NCBI RefSeq assembly: GCF_016026235.1
Contig: NZ_CP065613.1
Origin: Escherichia coli
Lineage (GTDB): Bacteria; Pseudomonadota; Gammaproteobacteria; Enterobacterales; Enterobacteriaceae
Direction: 5' to 3' (one strand)
Length of the DNA stretch: 64,000 bases
Shown here: one piece after another, positions 19,073 through 36,418 of the stretch
How the letters are laid out: each line of letters starts with the position of its first letter
Numbering within the stretch: position 1 is the first letter of the stretch
Made by a program: the position numbers and the translations under genes
The notes under the pieces: generated by a model
What the model was told of the DNA's origin: nothing
Databases searched by the model: none
The model's input: the letters and a program-made list of their open reading frames with translations, nothing else

Positions 19073-19157
19073 GCCGAAGTGGCGAAATCGGTAGACGCAG
19101 TTGATTCAAAATCAACCGTAGAAATACGTGCCGGTTCGAGTCCGGCCTTCGGCACCA
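19073..19157 (+). tRNA. leuX: tRNA-Leu (anticodon CAA)
   Basis: 85-nt sequence GCCGAAGTGGCGAAATCGGTAGACGCAGTTGATTCAAAATCAACC...GGCACCA with CAA anticodon loop, long variable arm and 3' CCA. Confidence 0.9.
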
Positions 19158-20668: not shown

Positions 20669-23409
20669 ATGATTACAAAAGATATAGTTGTTAGTGCATA
20701 TAATTGTCTTAAGTCATATGCTTACTACGAAAACTTAAATTTTTTCCTAAAGGAAGAAATCGCTCAATTTGAAGATTCTCTCTATGACGAAAAAATAGAA
20801 AAAGTGGTTGATTTTTTTGAAAATAATAATGACATTAACTTTAATGAGTGGCTAAATAAAATTGATGTTGAATTATTACCAAAAAAAATTGATAGCCATT
20901 TGGATATTGAGCAAACGAGCGGAGCTCTTTTTTTAAGTAATAATAAGACATCAGATGAATACAAAGTAGGTGCTGTAAATTATTTGATCGTTGCTCCTAT
21001 TGAAATATATTTAATAGAAACACTCTGGTCTATCTTTGTTGGTTCAATGCTAGATGACAAGTTTTCTGATTCGGTTTATGGAAATAGAATATCAAAAGTA
21101 ATAAAAAATATTCTAAGAATAGTTTCGATGCGCCAAAAAACTCCTCAAAAAATATCTTTGAAAGATACATTGATAATTATAATAAATGGCGAGATGGTGG
21201 TATCGATAAAGCGATAGAAGTTATAGAAAAAGAGCGAAATGATGTTGCAATTCTTTCTCTGGATCTTAAGGGTTTTTATTATAATATAGATATAGATTTT
21301 GATGCCATTGATAGAATTATTGACGAAGAACAATTAGAAGAAATTAAAGCTCTTTCTATGTTGTTGAATAGTAAATTGAGGTTGATGCATCAAAAATACA
21401 GAGAGAAAATATCTCCATATATTGGTGTGACACATTCAACTCCTTCATCAAAAGGCATTCCAATTGGATTTACTTCTTCTGCCATATTATCTAATTGGTA
21501 TTTAATGGGTTTTGATAAAGATATTAAATCAAAAATTAACCCATCGTACTACGGTCGCTATGTGGATGATATTCTTTTAGTTTTTTCATCCCCGGACATT
21601 AAAAAAGAAGATAAAGGTGAAGAAGTAATAAAATTCATAGAGCGAACCCTTAATGGATTCATTAAACAGGCAGCGAATGATGAGAAAGGCTTTACGTTGA
21701 CCGAGAGTTATCATGAATTACCAATTCAAAAGGATAAATTGATTTTTCATTATTTCAATAAAGATCATAGTTTGGCTGGTTTACAAGTCTTCAAACAAGA
21801 AATTGAGAACAGAAGCAGTGCATTTCGTTTTTTACCGGAAGAACATATATCTAGCGATCTCGATAAATTTGCTTATGATATATTACTTGATGGTTCGGCA
21901 AATAAATTTAGAAGTATTGTAGGTTTGGCAGAGAATGAAACTGAATTATCAAAATATATATCATCACATATCTTAGCTCATAGGCTTTGCAATCTTCCAT
22001 CGAATGAGAATACCTTAAAGCAAATAACGCTGTTTTTTAAAGGTGAAAATTCTCTAAGGTTCAGTCGGTTATGGGAGAAAGTTCTATCGTATACATTAAT
22101 TACAAGAAAATATGGATTTTCAATCGCCTTTTACAAACAAATTAAAGAATCAATTAATAAAATTAAGTGGAAGGAAGGTGATAGTGTTATATCTCCAAAA
22201 CTTAAAAATGGAATGCAGAAATACATTGATATTTCTCTTTGTTTGAATTTGGCTTTGTTAGATTTAAATGTCATTTTAGGTGATAAAGAGCCACAAAATA
22301 GAGCTTTGGAAGGTTTGAAATCTTTAATTAAACAGTCCGATGGAATGTCTGTTCTAATTGAAAGATTTAGAAGCAGTAATTTGATTCGTCATAATCTAGT
22401 GTCTTGGCCTTTAGCTAACTATACTAAATATAAAGGAGATCTTACTGAGGAGAATTTATACAGTAAGATGCATGGTATTCCACTTGATAATGATAAATTA
22501 AATAAAACCCCTAGATATATTCATGCTGATGAAAAGCAGCTTTTCGATTTGATTGATGCTCTTCATACAAGAAAACTACATAAGTTTACGCATGAAAATA
22601 AGCATCACTTAAAAAATTGCTCTGTTACTAAGATAAAAGATAATAAAGCTCTTGAAATAAAGGTAGGAATTGATGATAGAAGTGGTAATGACACAATAAA
22701 AGTTGCGTTGGCAAATATGAGAGTTGAACGTCGTAATATTGAAAGTGCTTGCAGAAAAGATCAGTCTCCAAATTTAAGTTATGAACGACAAAGAAACCTT
22801 TATCGTATTCTCAACTCGGCAACTGAAGAAAATGTGCAGATATTACTACTCCCTGAGTTATCAATTCCTGTGTCGTGGTTACCTTTTATGGCAGCACATT
22901 CAAGGAGAAAACAAATATCTTTGATTTTCGGATTAGAGCATTGGGTTATTAACGAACGCGCATATAATATTTTGGTTGAAATGCTGCCTTATACTTCAAA
23001 CTTTAAACACAAATCCAGTATGTTAGTTTTTCGAGTGAAAAATCATTACGCACCTAGTGAGATTACGATGCTGAATTCTTTAAGGTTAAAAATATCCTCT
23101 CCTAAACCTAGTAAACAACGGTATCATTTGATTAAGTGGAAAAACGTATCATTTTCTACATACAACTGTTTTGAACTGGCTAATATCGAGCATAGAGCAT
23201 TATTTCGTTCGCAGTTGGATATTTTATTTGCTTGCGTATGGAATCAAGATATAAATTATTATCAACATATCACTGAGTCAGCGACACGGGATTTACATTG
23301 TTATGTGGCTCAATCGAATACTTCGCATTATGGCGGTTCTTGTGTTCTACAACCGACCAGTAGCACTATTTCAAATAAGATATATGTAAAAGGTGGGGAA
23401 AACCACTGA
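20669..23409 (+). pseudogene. reverse transcriptase-nitrilase fusion (DRT1/UG1-like), with a -1 frame change near 21130-21155 and 3' end severed by IS insertion
   Basis: Frame switch between ORF 20669..21217 and the frame carrying RT motif A (AILSLDLKGFYYNID) and motif C (YGRYVDDILLVF); C-terminal nitrilase-superfamily triad motifs LLLPELSIP, FRVKNHYAPSE, STYNCFELAN; stop codon TGA supplied by the IS end. Confidence 0.7.
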
Positions 23410-24700
23410 GGGATCCCCAGAAAATTTAGTAAACCATTATCATATTGGTATACCGTTGCTGTAGAACTTTCAGCCCTGCGTCAAGTGACAGTGTGTTTAG
23501 TATGAGTGGAGAATGTCGAATCACATTCTCCGCCAGTTTTAATAACGAGATGACTCGCCTGTGCTTCACTGTATTTGCCTGATATTTATGATGTATCCCT
23601 TTGTTTTCCAGGCTGAAACCGCTTAACCACATAATGATACTGGCTAATGTTGCGATCAGACTCAATACCGTGACCCGCCCGGATGAATGACTGGCACCAA
23701 ACCGTAGTCCAAATCCCCAGCGAGGATTTTTTTCATCCCTGAAATTTTGCTCAATTTGCATTCTACGGCTGTATAATTTCATTACCTGTTTTGGCGAGAA
23801 CTCAGTACTGTTTGTGAAAATAAACCATGGTGATTTCCCGGCAGTACGAGCTTTAGCCGTCACCGATGGTCTGGTTGCTCTTTCCTTCGAGCGTTTAAAT
23901 CTACGACCTTTAGGCTTACTTTTATAAAGATAAAAATGCCCTTCATGTTGTGCATTTTTATCTCGACCCAGCAGGCCTTCACCTAAATAAATTGCTGTCG
24001 TTGATGCTTTTGTGCCTGAGTCCGACACCTTTTCCCAGCCATTACCAACATTGTAATAATGATTGCCCAGTACCCGGCAAATATAGGTCCAGCCACGGGA
24101 GCGGAGCTGTTGGAACCATCGCCCCTGAAAACCGGCATCTGTAATAACAATGACATCAGTCCCGGGGGAAAAGCACTCAGCAAGCGATTCCAGAAAACGC
24201 TCATGTACATCTGCATTCGCTGTCTGTGATGATGGAACGACACAACTCATCAACGGTAAAGAACGCCCGTCACATGCCAGGCTTGCCCGCAAAAGCTGAA
24301 AACGAGAGGCATGATAAGCACTCCAGTCAATGAGTATCACAACACGAGACATTCCCCGCGTAATCTTTTGGGTAATTCGCTGAAAAATGGTGGAAACCTC
24401 ATTTTGCAAATGTCGATTCCCCAACAGTCGATCCACCCGCTTTATTTTGTTTTTAACTGATGCCGTACCGGTTAAATGACGCCCGATACTGGTAAGTGTG
24501 AGGGAAGCGCCATTTATTACAGCATTAGTTGCGTCAATCAGTGATTTTTGACGGTAAAGATGCAAAGGGGCCAGTATGTTGTTAAGGAAATTTTGGCATA
24601 ATGAACGTGCAGGCATAGTGGTGATCTCCTTGAAATTGTTAGCACAATCAATTAGATCACATCTCACTATGCCTGTCTTGTTTTCTGGGGATTCCTCAGG
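23406..24700 (-). mobile_element. IS4-family insertion sequence (IS10-like), copy 2, flanked by 9-bp direct repeat GGAAAACCA
   Basis: Same element as copy 1 at a constant offset; duplicated 9-mer at 23397..23405 and 24701..24709. Confidence 0.85.
23426..24616 (-). CDS. IS4-family (IS10-like) DDE transposase
   Basis: Identical protein to copy 1; the ORF-track N-terminal extension crosses the IS boundary and is not part of the gene. Confidence 0.8.
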   Translation of the reverse strand: MPARSLCQNFLNNILAPLHLYRQKSLIDATNAVINGASLTLTSIGRHLTGTASVKNKIKRVDRLLGNRHLQNEVSTIFQRITQKITRGMSRVVILIDWSAYHASRFQLLRASLACDGRSLPLMSCVVPSSQTANADVHERFLESLAECFSPGTDVIVITDAGFQGRWFQQLRSRGWTYICRVLGNHYYNVGNGWEKVSDSGTKASTTAIYLGEGLLGRDKNAQHEGHFYLYKSKPKGRRFKRSKERATRPSVTAKARTAGKSPWFIFTNSTEFSPKQVMKLYSRRMQIEQNFRDEKNPRWGFGLRFGASHSSGRVTVLSLIATLASIIMWLSGFSLENKGIHHKYQANTVKHRRVISLLKLAENVIRHSPLILNTLSLDAGLKVLQQRYTNMIMVY

Positions 24701-24709
24701 GGAAAACCA

Positions 24710-24848
24710 TTGCATCCTAACTACTACTTTAAATATATATGCATTGAGAGAGGCTCAATATCGTTCATTCAGAATTAACTCCGATACTATTAAACACAAT
24801 CCTCCAGGGTTTGACTATAATGCTCTATTAGAGCGAGGTGAGAAATGA
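24710..24848 (+). pseudogene. displaced 3' end (last 45 codons) of the RT-nitrilase gene
   Basis: After removing the IS and one duplicated 9-mer the RT frame continues ...GGENH-CILTTTLNIYALREAQYRSF...ERGEK to TGA at 24846..24848. Confidence 0.65.
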
Positions 24849-26334: not shown

Positions 26335-26610
26335 GTGGCTTCCATTTCCATCAGATGTGCTTCCTGCTCCGCTACTGAAGGCGTGGTGCGTAACGGCAAA
26401 AGCACTGCCGGACATCAGCGCTATCTCTGCTCTCATTGCCGTAAAACATGGCAACTGCAGTTCACTTACACCGCCTCTCAGCCCGGTACGCACCAGAAAA
26501 TCATTGATATGGCCATGAATGGCGTCGGATGTCGCGCCAGTGCACGCATTATGGGCGTTGGCCTCAACACGGTTTTACGTCACTTAAAAAACTCAGGCCG
26601 CAGTCGGTAA
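26335..26610 (+). CDS. insA: IS1 InsA
   Basis: 91-aa product with zinc-finger CxxC...CxxC and HTH, matching InsA. Confidence 0.9.
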
Positions 26611-27032
26611 CCTCGCGCATACAACCGGGCAGTGATGTGATTGTCTGCGCTGAAATGGACGAACAGTGGGGCTACGTCGGTGCTAAATCACGTCAGCGCT
26701 GGCTGTTTTACGCGTATGACAGGATACGGAGGACGGTTGTGGCGCACGTCTTCGGTGAACGCACTCTGGCCACACTGGAGCGTCTTCTGAGCCTGCTGTC
26801 GGCCTTTGAGGTCGTGGTATAGATGACGGATGGCTGGCCGCTGTATGAATCACGCCTGAAGGGAAAGCTGCACGTTATCAGCAAGCGTTACACTCAGCGC
26901 ATTGAGCGACATAATCTGAATCTGAGACAACATCTGGCAAGGCTGGGACGGAAGTCACTGTCGTTCTCAAAATCGGTGGAGCTGCATGACAAGGTCATCG
27001 GGCATTATCTGAACATAAAACACTATCAGTAA
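26529..27032 (+). pseudogene. insB: IS1 InsB with internal TAG stop at 26820..26822
   Basis: InsB frame is split into ORFs 26529..26822 and 26823..27032 by one stop where IS1 normally has a Trp codon (VVIWMTDGW). Confidence 0.7.
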
Positions 27033-27345
27033 GTTGGAGTCATTACCCGGCGTGCGTGCCAGGTACAGTCGTTCGGCTGGAAAAATACGGGGGCTGAGCC
27101 TGCTGGCAACACTGAGCACAATAGTGCGGTGGCTTATTGGCTATCACGCTTAAAATAAAGGGGTAGATCTGAGACAGCAGGCCAACAGAATTAAAACGCG
27201 GCGGGTAATATCGTATCTGACATTAGCGAAGAATATCTTGCGATACTCCTCGCTAATTTTAAAACGAATGGTGCTGATCACCGTTCTTAATCACTTCGCC
27301 AGAACCGACCATAATATGGTGTTGGTTTATTAGCGCTGATTCATG

Positions 27346-27358
27346 GGGATCCCTCAGT
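27346..27358. repeat. solo 13-bp match (GGGGATCCCTCAG) to the terminal repeat of the IS4-family element
   Basis: Exact reverse-complement of the IS left terminus (CTGAGGGATCCCC) with no adjacent IS body. Confidence 0.4.
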
Positions 27359-27380
27359 GCTTTTGCGGTTTTTTATATCT

Positions 27381-28205
27381 TTAAAGCAGTAGCGGTAGGG
27401 TCGCGCTGGCAGTTTGCTGGCTCACATCGCTGTACTTATGATCCAGCGCAATCAGCGATGTGGTGAGTAACTCTACCAACAGCATAACTCCCACCTTGGC
27501 ATTCAGCGCGCCAGCGCTCAAGGGGCCTTCCGGTTTGGCCGCGACCAGTTGAATATCACTCAGCGAAGCTAACGGACTGCGCGGCGTATTACTCAGCGCC
27601 AGTACACGCACACCTTGCTTACGCGCTAGTTTTACGACATGCAGCAGATCGCGCGTGGATCCAGAACTGGAAATCGCCACCACGAACGTGTTTTTACTAA
27701 GTGTTGTGGCGTTCATGGCAGCACGATGCATATCGCTGAACAATTGTGCGGGTTTCCCCAGACGCAGGAGTTTGTAATGTAAATACTCCCCCAGAATAGC
27801 ACTGGCTGCTACGCCATAAATCTGTACTGACTGAGCCTGATGCAGTGCAAGCGTGGCTGCTTCCAGCAAGGTCCTATCGAGTAATTTTGCTGTGTCCTGT
27901 AGTGCTTGCACGGATTCATTGACCACATTGTCAATCTCATCACCGCCGTACTCTACAGACTGTACTTGTCGGAGATCGAGTGCAAGCGCCATTTTGAATT
28001 CGTTATAGCCCTTACACCCCAGCGTTCGGCACAGACGTGTGACGCTAGCCTCGCTGGTGCCGCTTTCACGCGCCAGTTCGGTAATCGTCAGGTAGACAAC
28101 TTTTGCCGGATCGCTAAGTACAAACTCTCCCAGCTTCTGTTGAGTTCGACTATATCCATCAACGCTCTGGCGCAATCTCAGCAGCAGGTTTTCATTTTCT
28201 GGCAT
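27381..28205 (-). CDS. RpiR/MurR-family transcriptional regulator (HTH + SIS domain)
   Basis: 274-aa ORF; N-terminal HTH (LTITELARESGTSEASVTRL) and SIS sugar-phosphate-binding region; divergent from the PTS gene. Confidence 0.8.
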   Translation of the reverse strand: MPENENLLLRLRQSVDGYSRTQQKLGEFVLSDPAKVVYLTITELARESGTSEASVTRLCRTLGCKGYNEFKMALALDLRQVQSVEYGGDEIDNVVNESVQALQDTAKLLDRTLLEAATLALHQAQSVQIYGVAASAILGEYLHYKLLRLGKPAQLFSDMHRAAMNATTLSKNTFVVAISSSGSTRDLLHVVKLARKQGVRVLALSNTPRSPLASLSDIQLVAAKPEGPLSAGALNAKVGVMLLVELLTTSLIALDHKYSDVSQQTASATLPLLL

Positions 28206-28370
28206 GCAAAATCCTTAATGCGTTTCTCTGCCGATAGTGTGGCGGAAAGTAGGGGAGAGATGCCAGTCATTTTAAAAAAGTATGATCGGTGTCTTGGTTT
28301 TTGATGGTAATTTTCATTTTTAAAATTAGTTATGGTAAAAATTTTTATCAATAATCGGGGAGATGAAAAA

Positions 28371-29927
28371 ATGATGCAAATATTTAGCGGCGCTTCGTCA
28401 GGCGCATGGTTTGAAAAAGCGCAGCGGTTCGGCAAATCGTTCATGCTGCCGATTGCGGTATTGCCCGCAGCGGGGTTGTTGTTGGGGATTGGTGGGGCTC
28501 TGTCGAATCCCAATACGTTGACGGCCTACCCATTCTTGAATGTCGACTGGCTGCAGGCAATCTTCACAATCATGACCAGCGCAGGTTCTATTGTGTTTGC
28601 CAACCTGTCGGTACTCTTTGCGGTCGGCGTCGCCGTGGGGCTGGCGAAATCGGATAAAGGCACTGCCGGGCTTGCGGCATTGCTAGCGTTTCTGGTGATG
28701 AATGCTACCATCAACGCCTTATTAACGCTAAATGGAACGTTGGCGCACAAGAACCCCGGTTCAGTTGGCCAGGGGATGACGCTTGGTATTCAGACACTGG
28801 AAACTGGTGTGTTTGGTGGGGTGGTGATTGGTCTCGTCACCTGCACGTTACATAGCCGTTTCAATAAAGTCTCACTACCTCAGTTTCTCGGTTTTTTTAG
28901 TGGTTCTCGTTTTGTACCCATTATCAGCTCCCTTGCCGCGATAGTAGTGGGTGCGGTTATGACGGTGGTGTGGCCGCATTTCCAGAAACTCATTTTTGGA
29001 CTGGGCGGCCTGGTGGATGCGACGGGCTATCTGGGGACGCTGTTGTACGGCTTCATCCTGCGTATGCTTGGTCCACTGGGTTTACACCATATCTTTTATT
29101 TGCCGTTCTGGACGACGGCGCTGGGCGGCAGTGAAATCGTCAACGGCCAGTTGGTTGAAGGTACGCAGCGGATTTTCTTTGCCCAACTTGCCGATCCGAA
29201 TACGCAGCAGTTCTACGCGGGTACCGCTCGCTTTATGTCCGGGCGCTTTATCACCATGATGTTTGGCCTGCTTGGCGCATGTCTGGCAATGTACCATACG
29301 GCAAAGCCGGAGAATAGAAAGGTTGTCGCCGGACTACTTTTGTCGGCAGCCTTGACCTCTTTCCTGACGGGAATCACTGAGCCTGTTGAGTTCTCCTTCC
29401 TGTTTGTCGCGCCCGTATTATACGTAATTCACGCCTTCTTCGATGGTCTGGCGTTTATGGTCGCCCATATTTTACATATCACTATTGGGCAAACCTTTTC
29501 GGGCGGGCTTATCGATTTCCTTCTCTTCGGCGTGTTGCAGGGGGAATCTAAAACAAACTGGATGTATGTCCCCATAGTGGGAATACCGTGGTTCTTCCTT
29601 TACTACTTCACTTTCCGCTATTTGATTAACCGCTTTGGCTGGCTGACGCCGGGTCGTGAGAACGTAACCCTGGTTGAATCCGGCCAGCCTCAGAGTGAAC
29701 GCGCAGCGGCAGTCATTGCCGGGCTGGGAGGCAAAGAGAATCTGGAAGAGGTGGACTGTTGCGCCACGCGCCTGCGCGTGACGGTTAAAGAGAGCAGTAA
29801 GGTAGATGAAGCTGCGCTGAAAGTGACCGGAGCGCGTGGCGTGATTATTCGCGGCAACGGCGTTCAGGTGATTTATGGCCCTCATGTCACCATCATTAAA
29901 AACGAAGTCGAAGAGATTTTATCGTAA
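28371..29927 (+). CDS. PTS glucose-family EIICB component
   Basis: Polytopic EIIC followed by EIIB motif CATRLR; GGGGAG Shine-Dalgarno ahead of ATG at 28371 (ORF track starts at 28332). Confidence 0.8.
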
Positions 29928-30616
29928 TGAAAACTGTACTGGATTCCCTGAAAGGTAAATTAATCGTCTCCTGTCAGGCTCTGGAAAATGAGCCTCTACA
30001 TAGTCCGTTTATTATGTCACGTATGGCGCTGGCGGCAGCACAAGGTGGTGCTGCAGGTATCCGTGCCAACAGCGTGGCGGATATTAGTGCTATCAAAGAG
30101 ATTGTCTCCCTTCCGATGATAGGGATTATCAAACGCGATTACCCTGGCAGTGAGGTGTTTATCACGGCCACTCTCCGGGAAGTGGATGAGTTGATGACCG
30201 TTGAGCCGGAAATTATTGCCCTGGATGCTACTGCGCGCCCGCGCCCTGGTGGTCAGACGCTGGAAGAACTGGTCACGCAGATCCGCGCTCGCTACCCGTC
30301 CGTACTTCTGATGGCAGATATAGCAACAGTAGAAGAGGCGGTGACAGCTGAACGTCTGGGTTTTGACTGTGTGGGCACTACGCTCTACGGCTATACCGCA
30401 GAAACTGCCAGGCATGTGCTGGCGGAAAATGACTGTGGATTCTTACGTGAGGTCCTGGCAGCGGTCAGCGTTCCGGTTGTGGCGGAAGGGAACGTCGATA
30501 CCCCGGAACGTGCCGCACGTTGCCTAACATTAGGCGCTCATACCGTGGTGGTTGGGGGGGCAATCACTCGTCCGCAGCAGATAACGACACGCTTTATCGC
30601 GGCGATCGCCTCGTAA
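29927..30616 (+). CDS. putative N-acetylmannosamine-6-phosphate 2-epimerase (NanE family)
   Basis: 229-aa TIM-barrel-like product; start overlaps the EIICB stop (TAATG). Confidence 0.75.
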
Positions 30617-30643
30617 AGCACCGATGGGGTATGATACTTTGGT

Positions 30644-30673
30644 GGGGATAAGCGATAATTATCGCTTATCCCC
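30644..30673. repeat. perfect 30-bp palindrome GGGGATAAGCGATAATTATCGCTTATCCCC
   Basis: Exact dyad symmetry directly downstream of the NanE-like gene, without a T-run. Confidence 0.6.
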
Positions 30674-31856
30674 ATATTGAGAGTGTTATGCAGTACCCGA
30701 TTAGCTAGATTTTCCAGACCCTGCAAGGTGAGGGGGACTATTGACGCGCTGGACGAACTATTCGCCACGCTGAGCTACGACAAACCGCGGGTGATTGCGC
30801 TGCACTTTAAAATTTCCGAAGGTTATACCCTGTTGATGCTGATTACCACCTTCACCAGCTGCCTGATATTGTGCAAAAACTACGGCTGGTGAAGGTTGGT
30901 TTTACCATTACTGCTGTATATACCCTGCAACTGTTATGGCTGAATGGCGAGCAGTACATCCTTCCGTGTCTTATCAACACCATTATTGGTTGTTTAATTG
31001 CTTCGGCGGTACCGTCTGGTTGTGGTCACAGTGGTATAACGGGTTATTGCGTAAGAATGCCCATGACGCTTCAGAAGCCTATCAGAAAGTGATATTGGCT
31101 CAGCAGCACTTTACAAACGGCGGTACAGTGGCTGGGAGATTATTGCCGATCCGATATGCCGCATTAATGAGAGAGTTCATCATAGGAGAACGCTTTTGCC
31201 AAATAAACCACCTGCCTGTCGTCCAGAATCGCCGCGTAGCTGGTTTTCCCAACCGTTTGCTCAGAAATGAGATCAATAGCCGCAAATCGCGGGCCTGATC
31301 GATGCTTTCAATATAGTTAGCCGCCATTTTTTGCAGCGCCAGGCCCACGTGATACAAGCGTGTATCCGGCATATAGAGCGGATAGTCGTTATCGAGAAAC
31401 TCCTGAGTCAGGCAGTGGGCGGAGCTTCTGGGAATATAGAGGTAATCTGCGAGGCGATCTGATGTATAATCTGTTTAGTAAGAGTAGCGTTTTTAACGCT
31501 ATTACGTCCATGGTGTAGCCTATATGCAGGCAAAGTTCATATCCTTGAGTTTTATGTCAGCCTCTTCCTTTAAGCATCTACTTGGTGTCTATCGTTACTT
31601 CGCACACAAGCATCATGTATATGATGTAACGAAATTAGTTAACGCCCTTATAAGAATCAAGACGTTATCGGGACGCTGTTAACCTGGCTATCCATCCCAA
31701 AACCGGTGCTGACTGGCAATAGCGCGGACAGCAAAATCGGGTGATGACACCGGGGCAGAATGAAAAATATTATCTTGCTGGCGCGTTACATAGCTGAACG
31801 GGCAAAGTCTGCTACGTGGGCAGTAACCGCAAAGTTCAGCCTTATTTATCAGTCTG

Positions 31857-32090
31857 TTGAAGCAACTGAAGTCTGTGTACCGGCGGGCAAAAACGATGCC
31901 CCTCATCGTGGATAATTACATTATTCACAAAAGCCGGGAAACGCAGCGTTGGCTGAAGGAAAATCCGAAGTTCAGGGTGATTTATCAGCAAGTTTACTCG
32001 CCATGGGTAAATCATTTTGAACGGCTATGGCAGGCGCTTCATGAAACGATAACGCGCAATCATCAGTGCCGGAGATGTGGCAGTTGCTGA
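31857..32090 (+). pseudogene. C-terminal fragment of a DDE transposase (IS630-like motif YSPWVNHFERLW)
   Basis: 77-aa ORF with no N-terminal catalytic domain; surrounding frames broken. Confidence 0.4.
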
Positions 32091-32176
32091 AAAAAGTCCA
32101 ACACTTTATGGAAACTGCCAGTCCGTTCCCCGGCGGGAGACATGGTCTGGCAAAAGTGTAGCGGTATTAGGCGCAG

Positions 32177-32470
32177 CTATTTAGCGACATATTCCTTTGT
32201 TTTATCGTCAGTTCGTAAACGTCCGATAGCGATGATGTGAAGTGCACTATTTGCAGCACGCTCCCCACCCCGATTAAGTCGGTAACGGTTCATTTTTTTA
32301 GAAGATACGGTAACCGAGTTGACACCACACAGCACCGCAAAACCTGATTCTATTCTTAGCCGTTGGGGATTATCTCCGGCAGTGATGAGCAACTGCGAAG
32401 CGCTTTCGTATCCAACAGCATTACGTTTAATCAGTTCAGGTGCCAGTTCATCGACAATTGCCGCAATCAT
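32177..32470 (-). pseudogene. C-terminal fragment of an IS110-family-like transposase
   Basis: 97-aa ORF whose pattern (GVNSVTVSSKK...RGGERAANSALHIIAIGRLR) parallels the C-terminal region of the intact IS110-family protein at 36419..37546. Confidence 0.35.
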
Positions 32471-32861
32471 GACATCAAGGTCGGCGATTTCATCATGTAA
32501 CTCGAAATAGCGTCAGGCAAGTGATTTCAATGCAATGCGATAAACGTTGGTAACATTACGATATTCACTGGCACTAGGCTTCCAGGATCCCGGAGTCCTG
32601 ATAAGTTGCATACGTGTCATATTTCTGAGTGGTTCGCGTAATTCATCCGGTGCAGAGATAATATAGGAATGGATAATCTGGAGAGCGACTCTGCAGGCTG
32701 ATATTGCGGTTTTGCGGCAAGTTTTTGGCATCCGCTTCTACGCCAAATACCTGAAGTAGGAATGGATGCGTTAGCAGCATACATCCGGATCTGCGCGGGG
32801 AATAGCCGGAAACGGCTATCCCTACCACAATAGCTAACTTTGTAATAGTGCCCTTTTAGGC

Positions 32862-33893
32862 TCATGTACTCTGACGTAATTCTATCTGGTAGTTGAATTG
32901 CACGATACGCGACTCTTCTGATTCATCATGATTATTATTCAATAGCCCAATCAGTAACTTACCCGTCTCTATCCCCATTTTTTTGTAGTCAATACGGATG
33001 GATGTCAAGGTTGGGTGTGTTTGATCGCAATTGTCTGAACCATCAAGACAAGCTACAGCGATATTTTCAGGAATTTTTAACAAACGCCGCTGGCACTCAA
33101 ACATGATACCCAGCGCAATCTCTTCGTGGCTGCAAATCACAGCATCCAGCTCTGGTTGTCGCAGTAATATCTCGTTTAATGCGTAACGCCCCAATTGCAG
33201 ACTTGCGGCATCCGGCATGGTGATAACAAGATCAGAGTTCTGGTAATGGCTCAACATTGCTTTATGCCAGCCGTTCAGTTGCTGACGTTGCAGGCGGTTG
33301 TCCATATGCGCACCGATAAATCCGATATTCTTATAACCCTGTTCCAGCAGATGTTCGGTCAGTTTATGTGATGCTTCAAAAAATGCTGTTTCGATGGTAA
33401 TTTGAGCCGGACTGAAAGGGGAACCGACAACGTTAATGGTAGGTATATTTGTTTTCTCGAGTATCTGGTGAGTTTTATCAGCCAACTGAGAACCAAAAAT
33501 AACTAACGCCGCCGGGTTGCCTTGAAGAAGCGTCATCAGAATTTCAGCTTCTTTGAGCTGATTATACTCATGACACCCAAGCAGTAGCTGGAATTCATTT
33601 TTATTAAGCACCTGCTGCAACGACTGCATAAAGCGGGAGCTGGCTTTATCTGTCAGGGAAGGAACCAGTACGGCGACTGTATCACTGTGACCAGATGCAA
33701 GGGCGCCAGCAGTTCTGTTGGGAATATAACCCAACTCTTCTACGGCCTGTTCTATCTTTTCCCTCAGCTTGTCAGATACCTGTTCCGGTGTTCTCAGCGC
33801 ACGGGAAACGGTCATGGTTCCGACACCTGCAAAGTTAGCGACCTCCTGCAGCGTCACCCGTCCGGTACCACGGCGCTTACGTGTTTTTTCCAT
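32862..33893 (-). CDS. LacI-family transcriptional regulator
   Basis: 343-aa ORF with N-terminal HTH (TLQEVANFAGVGTMTVSRAL) and sugar-binding domain; divergent from the PTS operon. Confidence 0.8.
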   Translation of the reverse strand: MEKTRKRRGTGRVTLQEVANFAGVGTMTVSRALRTPEQVSDKLREKIEQAVEELGYIPNRTAGALASGHSDTVAVLVPSLTDKASSRFMQSLQQVLNKNEFQLLLGCHEYNQLKEAEILMTLLQGNPAALVIFGSQLADKTHQILEKTNIPTINVVGSPFSPAQITIETAFFEASHKLTEHLLEQGYKNIGFIGAHMDNRLQRQQLNGWHKAMLSHYQNSDLVITMPDAASLQLGRYALNEILLRQPELDAVICSHEEIALGIMFECQRRLLKIPENIAVACLDGSDNCDQTHPTLTSIRIDYKKMGIETGKLLIGLLNNNHDESEESRIVQFNYQIELRQST

Positions 33894-34163
33894 TTCGACT
33901 CCATGGATAATTACAACCAGCTGTTTTCATTACTGTTATTTCACCATTACTCTTTCCAGTTTTTGCCCACGGTAGCAAATATCCTGTTGCATTGTATATG
34001 CAGGAACCGAATATAGCCAAAGCATGGCGGCAGAGAAATGATAGCGCTATCACAAAGATTGGTAGCGTTATCAGATAGCGCTATCAAATGCGACAATCAT
34101 CACATTAATTAATGCGTAAAATATCTACTCTCCTGTTAATTATCATCGGGAGTTATCAGTAGC

Positions 34164-34607
34164 ATGTTAAAAAATCTATTAAATACAGAGGTCGTTCAGG
34201 TCGTGGAACAGGCCAAAGACTGGCGGGAAGCCGTGGCGATTTCATGCCGGCCGTTGATTGAAAACGGTTCTATCGAACCGCGTTATGTTGATGCGATCTA
34301 TCGCTCGCACGACACTATCGGTCCGTACTATGTGGTTGGCCCTGGTATTGCGATGCCTCATGCGCGCCCGGAAGAGGGAGCTAACAAGCTGTCATTAGCA
34401 CTGACCCTGATCCCTTCAGGTGTGAATTTTGATGCCGATGAAAACGATCCAGTGAAATTACTGATTGTGCTGGCTGCAACCGACAGTACCAGCCACATTG
34501 AAGCGATTTCTCAACTCGCCAAGTTATTCGATAACGAAAAAGACATACAGGCCATTTTGATGGCCAAAACGACGCAGGACATTTTGTCTGTTATTGCGCG
34601 CTATTAA
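34164..34607 (+). CDS. PTS EIIA component (ascorbate/mannitol-type)
   Basis: 147-aa ORF with phosphorylatable His region GIAMPHAR. Confidence 0.75.
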   Translation: MLKNLLNTEVVQVVEQAKDWREAVAISCRPLIENGSIEPRYVDAIYRSHDTIGPYYVVGPGIAMPHARPEEGANKLSLALTLIPSGVNFDADENDPVKLLIVLAATDSTSHIEAISQLAKLFDNEKDIQAILMAKTTQDILSVIARY

Positions 34608-34622
34608 TCCAGAGGAACATTT

Positions 34623-34910
34623 ATGAAAATTACAGTGGTTTGCGGTAACGGCTTAGGCACCAGCCTGATGATGGAAATGAGCATTAAAAGCATTTTGAAG
34701 GATTTGTCCGTCAGCGCTGATGTTGATCACGTCGACCTGGGCTCCGCGAAAGGGACGCCGAGTGATATCTATGTCGGCACCAAAGACATTGCCGAGCAGT
34801 TAGTCGCGCAGTCTGTCGCAGGCAAAATCGTCGCACTGGAAAATATGATTGATAAGAAAGCCATGAGAGAACGTTTATCCGTGGTATTAAACGAATTAGG
34901 CGCACTGTAA
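34623..34910 (+). CDS. PTS EIIB component (ascorbate-type)
   Basis: 95-aa ORF with N-terminal Cys motif VVCGNGLGTS. Confidence 0.75.
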   Translation: MKITVVCGNGLGTSLMMEMSIKSILKDLSVSADVDHVDLGSAKGTPSDIYVGTKDIAEQLVAQSVAGKIVALENMIDKKAMRERLSVVLNELGAL

Positions 34911-34922
34911 GCTGGGGGCGAT

Positions 34923-36179
34923 ATGGATTTCTTTCGTTTTTTGATGAGCGATGTACTTTCCGAACCCGCAGTGCTGGTCGGTTTAATCGCCCTGATTGGC
35001 CTGATTGCACAGAAAAAACCGGTAACCGAATGCATTAAAGGTACCGTCAAGACCATTATGGGGTTTGTGATTTTAGGCGCAGGGGCGGGTTTAGTTGTGT
35101 CGTCACTGGGTGACTTCGCAAACATTTTCCAGCATGCCTTTGGTATTCAGGGTGTAGTGCCGAACAATGAAGCCATTGTTTCCGTAGCGCAGAAAAGCTT
35201 CGGGAAAGAAATGGCGATGATTATGTTCTTTGCGATGGTTATCAACATTATGATTGCCCGTTTCACACCGTGGAAATTTATCTTCCTGACCGGTCATCAC
35301 ACGTTGTTTATGTCGATGATGGTAGCGGTAATTCTGGCAACAGCAGGCATGACCGGCATTACGCTTATAGCCGTTGGCTCTTTGGTTGTTGGCGTGGCAA
35401 TGGTCTTTTTCCCGGCTATTGCGCATCCGTACATGAAGAAAGTGACCGGTTCTGATGACGTTGCCATCGGCCACTTCTCAACATTATCTTATGTATTGGC
35501 CGGTTTCATCGGCAGCAAGTTTGGTAATAAAGAGCACTCGACTGAAGACATGAATGTGCCGAAAAGTCTGCTGTTCTTGCGCGACACGCCGGTTGCTATC
35601 TCTTTTACCATGAGCATAATTTTCCTGGTGACGTGCCTGTTTGCGGGTGCAGATGCGGTGAAAGAGCTTAGCGGTGGTAAAAACTGGTTCATGTTCTCTA
35701 TCATGCAATCCATTACCTTCGCAGCTGGCGTGTACATCATTCTGCAGGGTGTGCGCATGGTGATTGCGGAGATTGTCCCGGCATTCAAAGGTATTTCAGA
35801 CAAGCTGGTTCCGAATGCCAGACCTGCTCTCGATTGCCCGGTCGTCTTCCCTTACGCACCTAACGCTGTACTGGTTGGTTTCCTGAGTAGCTTTGCTGCA
35901 GGTTTAATCGGTATGTTCACGTTGTATCTGCTGAACATGATCGTGATTATTCCTGGTGTGGTGCCGCACTTCTTCGTAGGTGCAGCTGCAGGGGTATTCG
36001 GTAATGCAACGGGTGGACGTCGTGGTGCGATTTTGGGTGCCTTCGCTCAAGGCTTGCTTATTACCTTCCTGCCAGTATTCTTATTGCCGGTGCTGGGTGA
36101 TATTGGTTTTGCTAACACCACCTTCAGTGATGCTGACTTTGGCGCACTGGGTATTTTGTTAGGGATTATCGTTCGCTAA
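34923..36179 (+). CDS. PTS EIIC component (ascorbate-type, SgaT/UlaA-like)
   Basis: 418-aa polytopic membrane protein following EIIA and EIIB. Confidence 0.75.
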   Translation: MDFFRFLMSDVLSEPAVLVGLIALIGLIAQKKPVTECIKGTVKTIMGFVILGAGAGLVVSSLGDFANIFQHAFGIQGVVPNNEAIVSVAQKSFGKEMAMIMFFAMVINIMIARFTPWKFIFLTGHHTLFMSMMVAVILATAGMTGITLIAVGSLVVGVAMVFFPAIAHPYMKKVTGSDDVAIGHFSTLSYVLAGFIGSKFGNKEHSTEDMNVPKSLLFLRDTPVAISFTMSIIFLVTCLFAGADAVKELSGGKNWFMFSIMQSITFAAGVYIILQGVRMVIAEIVPAFKGISDKLVPNARPALDCPVVFPYAPNAVLVGFLSSFAAGLIGMFTLYLLNMIVIIPGVVPHFFVGAAAGVFGNATGGRRGAILGAFAQGLLITFLPVFLLPVLGDIGFANTTFSDADFGALGILLGIIVR

Positions 36180-36418
36180 TATTTTGATGACATTAATATC
36201 CTCCAGGATTTCAGGAACGTGGAGGATATTAATTCCTCTTATTTTCTCCATTTTTCTTTCTTCCAGTCAGGACTGCATCCGATTAATCGTAAGGCAGTAT
36301 GACTTTCTGTGAGACAGATGCTGGCCAACGTGGGATATTTAACGCGGGTTAACATCGTTGTCAGAGCCGCATGGGTGAGCTGTTGCTACACCCCGGTATT
36401 TCCACCACGGAGGCCAGC

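Follow-up and report, generated by a model that had tools for sequence, protein, structure and literature searches.

The region between the two PTS modules of the window is very probably a non-functional, multilayered IS scar, which forms the seam of two independently distributed PTS modules in the leuX island of E. coli. The window, that is the whole stretch of 64,000 nucleotides (64 kb) of Escherichia coli DNA analysed here, represents a leuX (tRNA-Leu-CAA) genomic island of the E. coli type. Gene relics alone were found between modules 1 and 2, namely a YccS/YhfK fragment, an IclR-GntR fusion, two pieces of an IS110-family element and one half of an IS630-family element. The preliminary description had already noted the two transposase relics (IS630-like and IS110-like) between the modules, and Pfam, blastn and tblastn showed them to be real and far beyond chance. 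In our analysis, the dead IS630-type element appears to be nested within the dead IS110-type element. The scar is of an ordinary, already known kind, with neither a new mechanism nor a new function, and its significance beyond annotation housekeeping is small. The features are given below; the RefSeq locus coordinates of near-identical genomes were converted to window coordinates by adding 10599.

27381–30616: PTS module 1, three genes, all intact (open reading frame list and RefSeq annotation of near-identical genomes)
27381–28205, minus strand: MurR/RpiR regulator, module 1
28371–29927, plus strand: maltose/glucose-type PTS EIICB, module 1
29927–30616, plus strand: N-acetylmannosamine-6-P 2-epimerase-like (NanE-like) gene, module 1
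30794–31094, plus strand: YccS/YhfK-family membrane-protein fragment, frameshifted, both termini missing (PGAP pseudogene)
31091–31441, minus strand: IclR-family regulator relic, about codons 33–148 of a gene of about 245 codons, frameshifted
31438–31552, minus strand: GntR/FCD-family regulator relic, upstream region and first 24 or so codons, ATG at 31511
31642–31689, minus strand: 3' terminus (right end) of the IS110-family (ISEc21-like) element, displaced (blastn)
31690–32183, plus strand: 3' half of the IS630-family (ISEc33-like) element (blastn, Pfam DDE_3, tblastn, PGAP pseudogene 31696–32161)
32184–32735, minus strand: central part of the IS110-family (ISEc21-like) element (blastn, tblastn, Pfam PF02371)
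32736–32861, no strand: palindrome-rich intergenic repeat, a spacer of 126 bp from the IS110 breakpoint to the LacI-family stop codon
32862–36179: PTS module 2, four genes, all intact (open reading frame list and RefSeq annotation)
32862–33893, minus strand: LacI-family regulator, module 2
34164–34607, plus strand: PTS IIA, module 2
34623–34910, plus strand: PTS IIB, module 2
34923–36179, plus strand: ascorbate-type IIC, module 2

The transposase cluster, which had been placed at 31400–32860, was thus narrower at both sides; 31400–31641 contained no transposase but the junction of the IclR and GntR relics (GntR start at 31511) and 89 bases without an assignment, and 32736–32861 was the palindrome-rich spacer and not IS sequence.

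The IS630 piece contained the stop codon at 32159–32161, the right inverted repeat at 32162–32181 and a TA at 32182–32183. Its nearest known relative was ISEc33, an IS630-family element with a DDE_3 transposase and a TA/CTAG target. In blastn, nucleotides 31694–32184 were 82.6% identical to the intact ISEc33 of L009 (2501–2993; E 1e-142), the match covering the 3' 493 bp of the element, and no difference was present in the last 43 aligned bases, which take in the stop codon together with the right inverted repeat (...GGTATTAGGCGCAGCTATT) and TA. The open reading frame at 31857–32090 on the plus strand matched Pfam DDE_3 with an E-value of 9.5e-10, and the stitched translation of 165 amino acids matched PF13358 (DDE_3) with an E-value of 2.9e-19 over profile positions 4–141 of 146. 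The piece corresponded in tblastn to amino acids ~187–343 of the 343-amino-acid transposase, spread over three frames, so that the N-terminal 186 amino acids were missing and the C-terminal 46% was kept. The frame was broken by two in-frame stops, TAG at 31720–31722 and TGA at 31795–31797, and by 1-bp deletions at ~31830 and ~32071. The relic had no counterpart to the left 665 bp of ISEc33, where the left inverted repeat and the sequence for the N-terminal DNA-binding region lie. Intact ISEc33 contains the inverted repeat CTAAATAGCTGCGC at each end; the right inverted repeat of the relic was identical to that of ISEc33, and the left-repeat motif CTAAATAG had no occurrence in the whole window. 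As the right repeat was kept and the left repeat absent, the piece is a remnant and not an element. With ~17% nucleotide divergence, it was a different isoform from ISEc33. A second IS630-family element, ISEc40 of the SE15 island, was rejected as the parent, since it showed no DNA similarity.

The central IS110 piece was related to ISEc21, an element of the IS110 subgroup of the IS110 family with a seekRNA/bridge-RNA-guided DEDD transposase. Nucleotides 32184–32726 were 88.8% identical to ISEc21 in a gap-free blastn alignment, and 32184–32735 were 92% identical to closer plasmid-borne relatives, L012 and L013 (92.2% for the intact copy L013). In tblastn (E 5e-112), the piece corresponded to amino acids 133–317 of 358, with 88.6% amino-acid identity to ISEc21, and spanned the coiled-coil region and the C-terminal Transposase_20 domain. 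The open reading frame at 32177–32470 on the minus strand matched Transposase_20 with an E-value of 3.6e-7, the values for PF02371 in the piece being 3.6e-7 and 1.7e-6. One in-frame stop was present at 32513–32515, and direct comparison showed that the homology breaks off at 32735/32736, after ...CATCCGC. Both relics had been described as C-terminal pieces only, which does not hold for IS110, as its true 3' terminus of 48 bp sits apart at 31642–31689. This terminus contained the final 9 codons with their stop codon (31657–31659) and 15–16 terminal non-coding bases, and was 85–90% identical to the right end of four ISEc21-type copies (E down to 3e-13); the matches included L008 2356–2403 and L010 and L012 2501–2548. 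ISEc21 in L008 extended over 2355/6–3728 (1373–1374 bp).

The relic lacked the left end of ISEc21, its seekRNA-encoding upstream non-coding region and, within the transposase, amino acids 1–132 and 318–349. The DEDD domain (RuvC-like, PF01548; amino acids 1–132) had no match anywhere in the window when the full transposase was used in tblastn. The ~280-bp upstream non-coding region of ISEc21 had no blastn match in the window either, the full-length query hitting just the two pieces. An Rfam scan of 30500–34200 detected no seekRNA/bridge RNA, a negative that shows only the lack of a usable model, since this RNA was also undetected in an intact ISEc21 copy. The mobility of ISEc21 requires the seekRNA (bp 8–179 of the upstream non-coding region) and the target flanks (PMC11187229). 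The IS110 relic is a dead, diverged relative of ISEc21 and not ISEc21 itself.

Only the right-end terminus of the IS110 element survives (31642, within 1 bp), and its flank, AAATTAGTTA, was unlike the ...CCCTGG / QGSHY-coding flank of L008, L010, L012 and L013. Elements of the ISEc21 group target the codons that surround the second D in the DDE motif of the IS3 family, and the flank of the relic differed from this target. The IS110 ancestor may have been an off-target or a re-targeted insertion. Because the right-end terminus is preserved within 1 bp yet abuts non-IS3 DNA, the ancestor could be read as a naturally re-targeted ISEc21 relative (cf. ISMch6) with a seekRNA for a site upstream of the GntR/IclR pair. 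We consider this reading unlikely; if true, dead copies of this kind would document natural re-programming of the seekRNA. In a weaker variant of it, likewise unlikely, the scar would be a recurrent recombination joint that favours the exchange of PTS modules among islands.

The arrangement of the pieces points to nesting, which refines the earlier picture of adjacent relics; non-IS genes (YccS/YhfK, IclR, GntR) have decayed there too. The IS630 piece lies between the IS110 terminus at 31642–31689 and internal IS110 sequence that starts at 32184, and only 97 bp of IS110 are missing between these two parts. The right end of IS630 (...GGCGCAGCTATT plus TA) adjoins internal IS110 sequence at 32181–32184, as an insertion junction would, and the TA is followed by GCGAC of IS110; the left IS630 junction is deleted. 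Elements of the IS630 family insert at TA, often within CTAG, and duplicate the TA. At the insertion point, the four IS110 relatives contained CTGG or TTGG, so that a single substitution would give a TA target and, in the copies with CTGG, also CTAG. An uninterrupted copy of the exact IS110 variant, with CTAG at this site, was not found; the nearest copies were 92% identical and contained CTGG. The PGAP annotation as two adjacent pseudogenes, tail to tail, and the length of just 48 bp of the match at 31642–31689 would also fit two independent neighbours, separately inserted and truncated and never nested. We regard this as very improbable, since the 48 bp correspond exactly to the right-end terminus in four ISEc21-type copies, with the identity and E-values given above, and are colinear with the main IS110 piece, whose strand they share, and since the right inverted repeat and TA of IS630 stop exactly on IS110 internal sequence. 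In addition, the copy of Z1323MEC0001, which was 2% diverged, had all three junctions and both frameshifts in common with the window. As the IS110 terminus lies colinear at the 5' side of the IS630 piece, a single deletion of ~760 bp would explain the losses from both elements.

The distribution of the region among genomes was in accordance with a module seam. At least 80% of 30600–33000 was carried by 295 complete E. coli genomes, with 99.9–100% identity among the matches listed, and both transposase relics were called pseudogenes by RefSeq/PGAP at equivalent positions in near-identical genomes. Four pseudogenes were present between equivalent PTS modules, as in the window, in the leuX islands of SE15 (NC_013654.1), ST131 strains and O104:H4 2011C-3493, the island of SE15 being colinear with window 27225–36293 at 99.9% identity, whereas the upstream island content varied from strain to strain. 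In ~150 genomes, module 1 was present while both the scar and module 2 were absent, and the homology of module 1 in other chromosomal contexts stopped at window position 30706. Z1323MEC0001 contained module 1 and the scar without module 2. Module 2 was found with the LacI-side IS110 remnant in many other contexts, with left cuts at 32197, 32209, 32410, 32632 and 32660. Some part of 32176–32870 was matched in 1518 of the 5426 genomes, a count that includes stand-alone ISEc21-type copies; for 29900–31700, 475 genomes gave a match. Since the modules were found separately, with differently truncated scars, the scar is a seam between modules, and the reassortment within the island that had been proposed from the sequence alone was supported. 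The leuX island is therefore a mosaic in this part, with a separate history for each of the two PTS modules, and the exact breakpoints could be used as lineage markers. Among E. coli complete genomes and PLSDB, the best intact parents were 92% (IS110) and ~83% (IS630) identical to the relics; an apparent 90–95% identity band seems, from the two such matches listed, to consist of short matches to the inverted repeat only.

In most genomes, the IS110 remnant lies to the left and a small 'transposase' open reading frame (WP_001327567.1) to the right of module 2, and the module so bracketed occurs in varied contexts, as might be expected if module 2 had once been mobile as a whole within a composite transposon, with the IS remnants as its former ends. 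Such an origin is very improbable: the two flanking relics carry different annotations, the right-hand relic is absent from the window, where an ISSso6 element is in its place, and in the IS110 family, where each element travels as a single circle that its seekRNA guides to one specific target, composite transposons are not known (PMC11187229). The role of the scar is very probably historical only, as a breakpoint where later IS or recombination events have cut the modules and joined them anew in different lineages. The island of the window was cut at 36293, where ISSso6 joins it to the dnaJ-dnaK-tal region; a search of 5426 genomes did not find this junction.

Nothing in the scar is predicted, from its sequence, to be able to transpose or to encode a working protein. 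The ratio of nonsynonymous to synonymous substitutions (N:S) was 21:15 on the window lineage, whereas intact ISEc21 had 6:24 on its own lineage (Fisher p=0.0024), and the substitutions point to relaxed constraint. In the Z1323MEC0001 copy, the first stop was absent and additional indels of its own were present. A promoter/terminator scan of the region detected no terminator-like site, and promoter-like sites were not above the shuffled expectation; Rfam gave no significant match in the scar region. Co-option of the remnant, for example of the 97-amino-acid frame at 32177–32470, which begins with ATG and contains the IS110 C-terminal domain, or of a scar RNA, would account for more than a thousand genomes having kept the scar beside the LacI-PTS module and for the LacI-side IS110 remnant and junction accompanying module 2 in many contexts. 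It is highly improbable, as the retained IS110 portion varies freely between lineages from 552 bp to 76 bp, Z1323MEC0001 has a 2-bp deletion within the 97-amino-acid frame, the N:S ratio signals relaxed constraint, and neither the promoter scan nor Rfam gave any excess or match. The remnant is retained because it hitch-hikes by linkage with module 2.

There is practically no chance that the frames were broken by sequencing or assembly errors and that intact transposase genes are really present, although the two 1-bp deletions lie beside short runs (A3; G2 after C2), a known class of platform error, since the 295 genomes that share the region were independently sequenced and assembled and carry the same lesions, the repaired frames give only amino acids ~187–343 of 343 for IS630 (46%) and 133–317 plus 350–358 of 358 for IS110 (~54%), not an intact gene, and the missing transposase parts were nowhere in the 64-kb window.

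The non-IS relics lie on the side of module 1. The stitched translation of the YccS/YhfK fragment showed a weak Pfam FUSC_2 match (E 8e-4), under the gathering score. The stitched IclR relic (31100–31511) had no Pfam or NCBIfam match of its own; a PDB sequence search gave only KdgR (E 0.87), and a word-indexed protein search gave E. coli fragments only. In an exhaustive HMMER search, its translation was 64% identical to the intact 245-amino-acid protein P0005 (E 8e-34), which contains HTH_IclR and IclR_C domains. Both domains were present in every one of its nearest intact homologues (E 8e-34 to 1e-6), through which the relic is placed in the IclR family as a probable, truncated and frameshifted member. 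At the nucleotide level, it was 79% identical to L019 1058–1403, and the GntR relic was 72% identical to L019 203–318 (E 1e-12), where a GntR/FCD gene begins at 244, directly before the IclR homologue. The GntR relic is joined to the IclR relic by a deletion. The stretch 'MDVIALKTLLLLN' (ATG at 31511) was considered as the IclR N-terminus, which the nucleotide comparison with L019 proved wrong, assigning it to the start of the neighbouring GntR/FCD gene. The IS110 gene beside the IclR homologue of L019 was unrelated to the IS110 relic (23% amino-acid identity) and was rejected as its ancestor.

The junction of IS630 with IS110 and the split of the IS110 element into two pieces support the earlier view that successive IS insertions and deletions shaped the island, and we infer the following order of events. 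An ISEc21-like IS110-family element would first have been present beside the LacI-PTS module. From the known behaviour of ISEc21, its host was probably an IS3-family transposase gene, since lost; this host is hypothetical, because the flank at 31630–31641 is not the IS3-type target of ISEc21. An ISEc33-like IS630 element would then have entered a TA, probably within CTAG, in the 3' part of the IS110 transposase gene. One deletion of ~760 bp, with microhomology of at most 4 bp, may have taken the left 665 bp of IS630 and 97 bp of IS110. Illegitimate recombination would subsequently have removed the IS110 5' third (DEDD domain, seekRNA/bridge RNA region and left end), by which the remaining IS110 was presumably joined to the palindromic spacer downstream of the LacI gene. 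Deletions on the other side could have fused the YccS/YhfK, IclR and GntR relics, followed by a putatively neutral build-up of point mutations. The region is a clean, small case of what appears to be nested IS insertion, then deletion and neutral decay. The annotation is corrected to an IS110 pseudogene split by, and apparently host to, an IS630 pseudogene, with the addition of a previously unannotated IclR/GntR relic beside the IS pseudogenes.

The spacer at 32736–32861 was 84% identical to an intergenic stretch in the O157:H7 CDI locus, and the junction of IS110 with the spacer was kept in all module-2 carriers examined. An 11-bp direct repeat, TAGGAATGGAT, was present at 32664 and 32757 and was considered as a recombination substrate; its flanks gave no support to a simple repeat-mediated event. 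The breakpoint of SCU-112 was found close to the first copy of this repeat (32664).

In the decayed DNA between two intact PTS modules (hereafter the scar), an IS630-like element is nested inside an IS110-like element. Up to position 36293, the window was colinear, at 99.9% identity, with the leuX genomic islands of the complete E. coli genomes SE15, 3359 and FDAARGOS_943. The annotated features were as follows:

19073-19157: tRNA-Leu(CAA), leuX
27381-28205, minus strand: module 1, MurR/RpiR regulator
28371-29927, plus strand: module 1, PTS EIICB
29927-30616, plus strand: module 1, NanE-like epimerase
31696-32161: RefSeq/PGAP pseudogene, IS630 relic
32180-32734: RefSeq/PGAP pseudogene, IS110 relic, "transposase, internal stop; missing N- and C-terminus"
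32862-33893, minus strand: module 2, LacI-family regulator
34164-34607: module 2, PTS IIA
34623-34910: module 2, PTS IIB
34923-36179: module 2, PTS IIC

The two unrelated transposase fragments reported here in the preliminary description, IS630-like and IS110-like, were real and correctly placed, far beyond chance according to the Pfam E-values and the RefSeq/PGAP pseudogenes, and modules 1 and 2 flanked them as it had stated. Its span of 31400-32860 contained both relics; nucleotides 31400-31641, however, were not transposase, and those up to 31552 belonged to a GntR/IclR relic.

The Pfam DDE_3 domain (IS630-type) was matched in the ORF 31857-32090 of the plus strand (E 9.5e-10), and the E-value was 2.9e-19 once the frames of the relic were stitched. 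To determine the anatomy of the relics, intact reference copies were taken from E. coli genomes and aligned with the window by local blastn. The final 493 bp (3' side) of ISEc33, an IS630-family element, matched nucleotides 31694-32184 at 82.6% identity; the homology stopped exactly at the ISEc33 right inverted repeat (...GGTATTAGGCGCAGCTATT), and TA came next (32182-32183). The relic covered amino acids ~187-343 of 343 in three frames, and was thus the C-terminal piece described. The broken frames were also present: two in-frame stop codons (31720-31722 and 31795-31797) interrupted the relic, and single bases had been deleted near 31830 and 32071.

The IS110 C-terminal domain (Transposase_20) was matched in the ORF 32177-32470 of the minus strand (E 3.6e-7; 1.7e-6 after stitching). 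Nucleotides 32184-32726 aligned ungapped with the interior of ISEc21 (IS110 family) at 88.8% identity, and two plasmid-borne relatives were 92% identical across 32184-32735. This relic was not a simple C-terminal piece: it covered amino acids 133-317 of 358, with one stop at 32513-32515, and the last nine codons were found displaced at 31642-31689. This displaced piece, unexpectedly, was the very 3' end (right-end terminus) of that same element, with 85-90% identity to four independent copies. ISEc21 measured 1373-1374 bp in reference locus L008 (2355-3728), in agreement with the published coordinates (PMC11187229); this places the true element end at 31642, give or take 1 bp. The IS110 relic lacked amino acids 1-132 (DEDD catalytic domain) and 318-349, and with them the left end of the element and its upstream non-coding region. 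The fragments did not form an intact gene, and the missing halves of the IS110 and IS630 relics were present nowhere else in the 64-kb window.

The IS110-like remnant consisted of two colinear, same-strand pieces on either side of the IS630-like piece, with just 97 bp of IS110 missing between them, hence the nesting. At the left junction (31686-31690), IS110 homology gives way to IS630 homology within at most 4 bp of common sequence, the pattern that an illegitimate deletion is expected to leave. The right junction (32181-32184) looks like the original insertion junction: the window reads (T)TAG, against CTGG or TTGG in the four IS110 relatives compared. The classical IS630 target is CTAG. By inference from these alignments, one substitution would restore the TA target at 32181-32184, and the classical CTAG in the CTGG copies. 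The 5' truncation of the IS110 relic at 32735/32736 (...CATCCGC|TTCTACG), with ~3 bp of common sequence at the joint, was joined to a palindrome-rich spacer of 126 bp.

Circle formation and transposition of ISEc21 require the seekRNA (bp 8-179, upstream non-coding region) and target flanks (PMC11187229), none of which were left in the window. The right end of all ISEc21-type reference copies (L008, L010 and the plasmid copies L012 and L013) adjoined ...CCCT(G/A)G. Both flanks were readable for L008 and L013 and translated to the IS3-family orfB motif MFHSD|QGSHY, the published ISEc21 target (PMC11187229); these copies are thus IS elements inserted into the catalytic-site codons of another IS. 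The sole feature pointing to a naturally re-targeted ISEc21 relative as the IS110 ancestor was the non-IS3 flank at 31641, and we consider such an ancestor unlikely. Compared with ISEc33 and ISEc21, respectively, the IS630 and IS110 relics were dead, diverged relatives, recognized by the family domain test but failing every test of a complete or active element.

Substitutions in the IS110 relic were polarized by two intact IS110 relatives. The window lineage contained 21 non-synonymous and 15 synonymous substitutions, against 6 and 24 in the intact ISEc21 lineage (Fisher p = 0.0024). The scar copy of strain Z1323MEC0001, 2% diverged overall, agreed with the window in all three of its junctions, its two frameshifts and the second stop, but lacked the first stop and contained extra indels of its own; the rearrangements are therefore old and point decay is ongoing. 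Scans of the scar region revealed neither a terminator-like site nor a significant Rfam hit, and promoter-like sites were not in excess. The substitution counts, the ongoing lesions and the missing signals speak for decay and against function.

When the stitched minus-strand translation of the IclR/GntR relic was searched exhaustively with HMMER, intact homologues of ~250 amino acids were recovered (best 64% identity, E 8e-34), all containing HTH_IclR and IclR_C. A metagenomic contig (L019; ENA ERZ27298654 k119_163137), which encodes the best of these homologues, matched 31091-31441 inside its IclR gene (79% nucleotide identity) and, over the first codons of the neighbouring GntR/FCD gene and the DNA upstream of them, 31438-31552 (72%). 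The window thus holds a GntR-start/IclR-middle fusion from a ~740-bp deletion, and the fusion adjoins a YccS/YhfK fragment (30794-31094). Of the sequences found, L019 came nearest to a source of 31091-31552; at 244-2999 it carries the GntR/FCD-IclR gene pair, then an IS110-family transposase unrelated to ISEc21 (23% identity).

Of 5426 complete genomes, 295 contained 80% or more of the composite region 30600-33000; SE15, ST131, O104:H4 and O55:H7 strains belonged to these, with 99.9-100% identity among the matches listed. Module 1 alone was present at another locus in ~150 genomes (97% identity, homology ceasing at window 30706). Z1323MEC0001 contained module 1 and the scar up to 32491, followed by mgtU-mgtR-mgtA, and no module 2; in strain Ec-2977, module 1 was removed by an IS1-associated deletion. 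Module 2, with a constant 32735/6 junction, was found in other neighbourhoods (IS66/ISEc45, reverse transcriptase, IS3 beside a P4-type primase, an enterotoxin fragment and a CDI locus), where the left of the IS110 remnant was cut at 32197, 32209, 32410, 32632 or 32660. These separate distributions and varied cuts make the scar a seam at which modules of separate history were joined and re-cut. The successive IS insertions and deletions proposed earlier are supported by the nested relics, the junctions and the varied module arrangements. Hundreds of RefSeq genomes already list the scar pseudogenes in their annotation, and it is textbook knowledge that tRNA-linked islands are IS-mediated mosaics; the nested IS630 relic, the displaced IS110 right-end terminus and the IclR/GntR relic are new details, as annotation-level refinements.

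The 126-bp spacer matched, at 84% identity over 32733-32830, intergenic DNA of a contact-dependent-inhibition (cdiA) locus of O157:H7. It lies downstream of the LacI-family gene and contains hairpin-forming palindromes, e.g., GGGAATAGCCG-GAAA-CGGCTATCCC. In SCU-112, the LacI-PTS module directly adjoins a cdiBA locus. An exact 11-bp direct repeat, TAGGAATGGAT, was present at 32664-32674 (inside the IS110 remnant) and 32757-32767 (spacer before the LacI stop); homology to SCU-112-type genomes starts at 32660, beside its first copy. A perfect 32-bp palindrome without a loop (TGGGGATAAGCGATAA/TTATCGCTTATCCCCA, 30643-30674), a possible hairpin or protein-binding site, is located 27 bp past the NanE-like stop codon, within module 1 but close to its right boundary (30706), and is kept in Z1323MEC0001.

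The leuX-island colinearity ends at 36293, just after PTS IIC, and is followed (to 47000) by an intact ISSso6 (IS110 family) and then mokC, ISEc60, dnaJ, dnaK, yaaI, msyB, satP, mog and tal. The leuX island lies at 97 min on the K-12 map, and an IS thus connects it here to the region at 0 min. A search of 5426 complete E. coli genomes turned up no sequence spanning this junction, which is probably a large IS-mediated rearrangement or deletion in an IS-rich strain. IS relics at 26335-27333, for which the annotation of near-identical genomes gives an IS1 pseudogene and a fragment of the IS4 family, border the left edge of module 1, so that each module of this island segment is bracketed by IS debris. 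Compared with strains 3359 and FDAARGOS_943, an insertion of ~1.3 kb at 23405-24699 splits the large reverse-transcriptase gene (RVT_1) of the island and encodes a 429-amino-acid DDE_Tnp_1 (IS4-type) transposase (23426-24715, minus strand).
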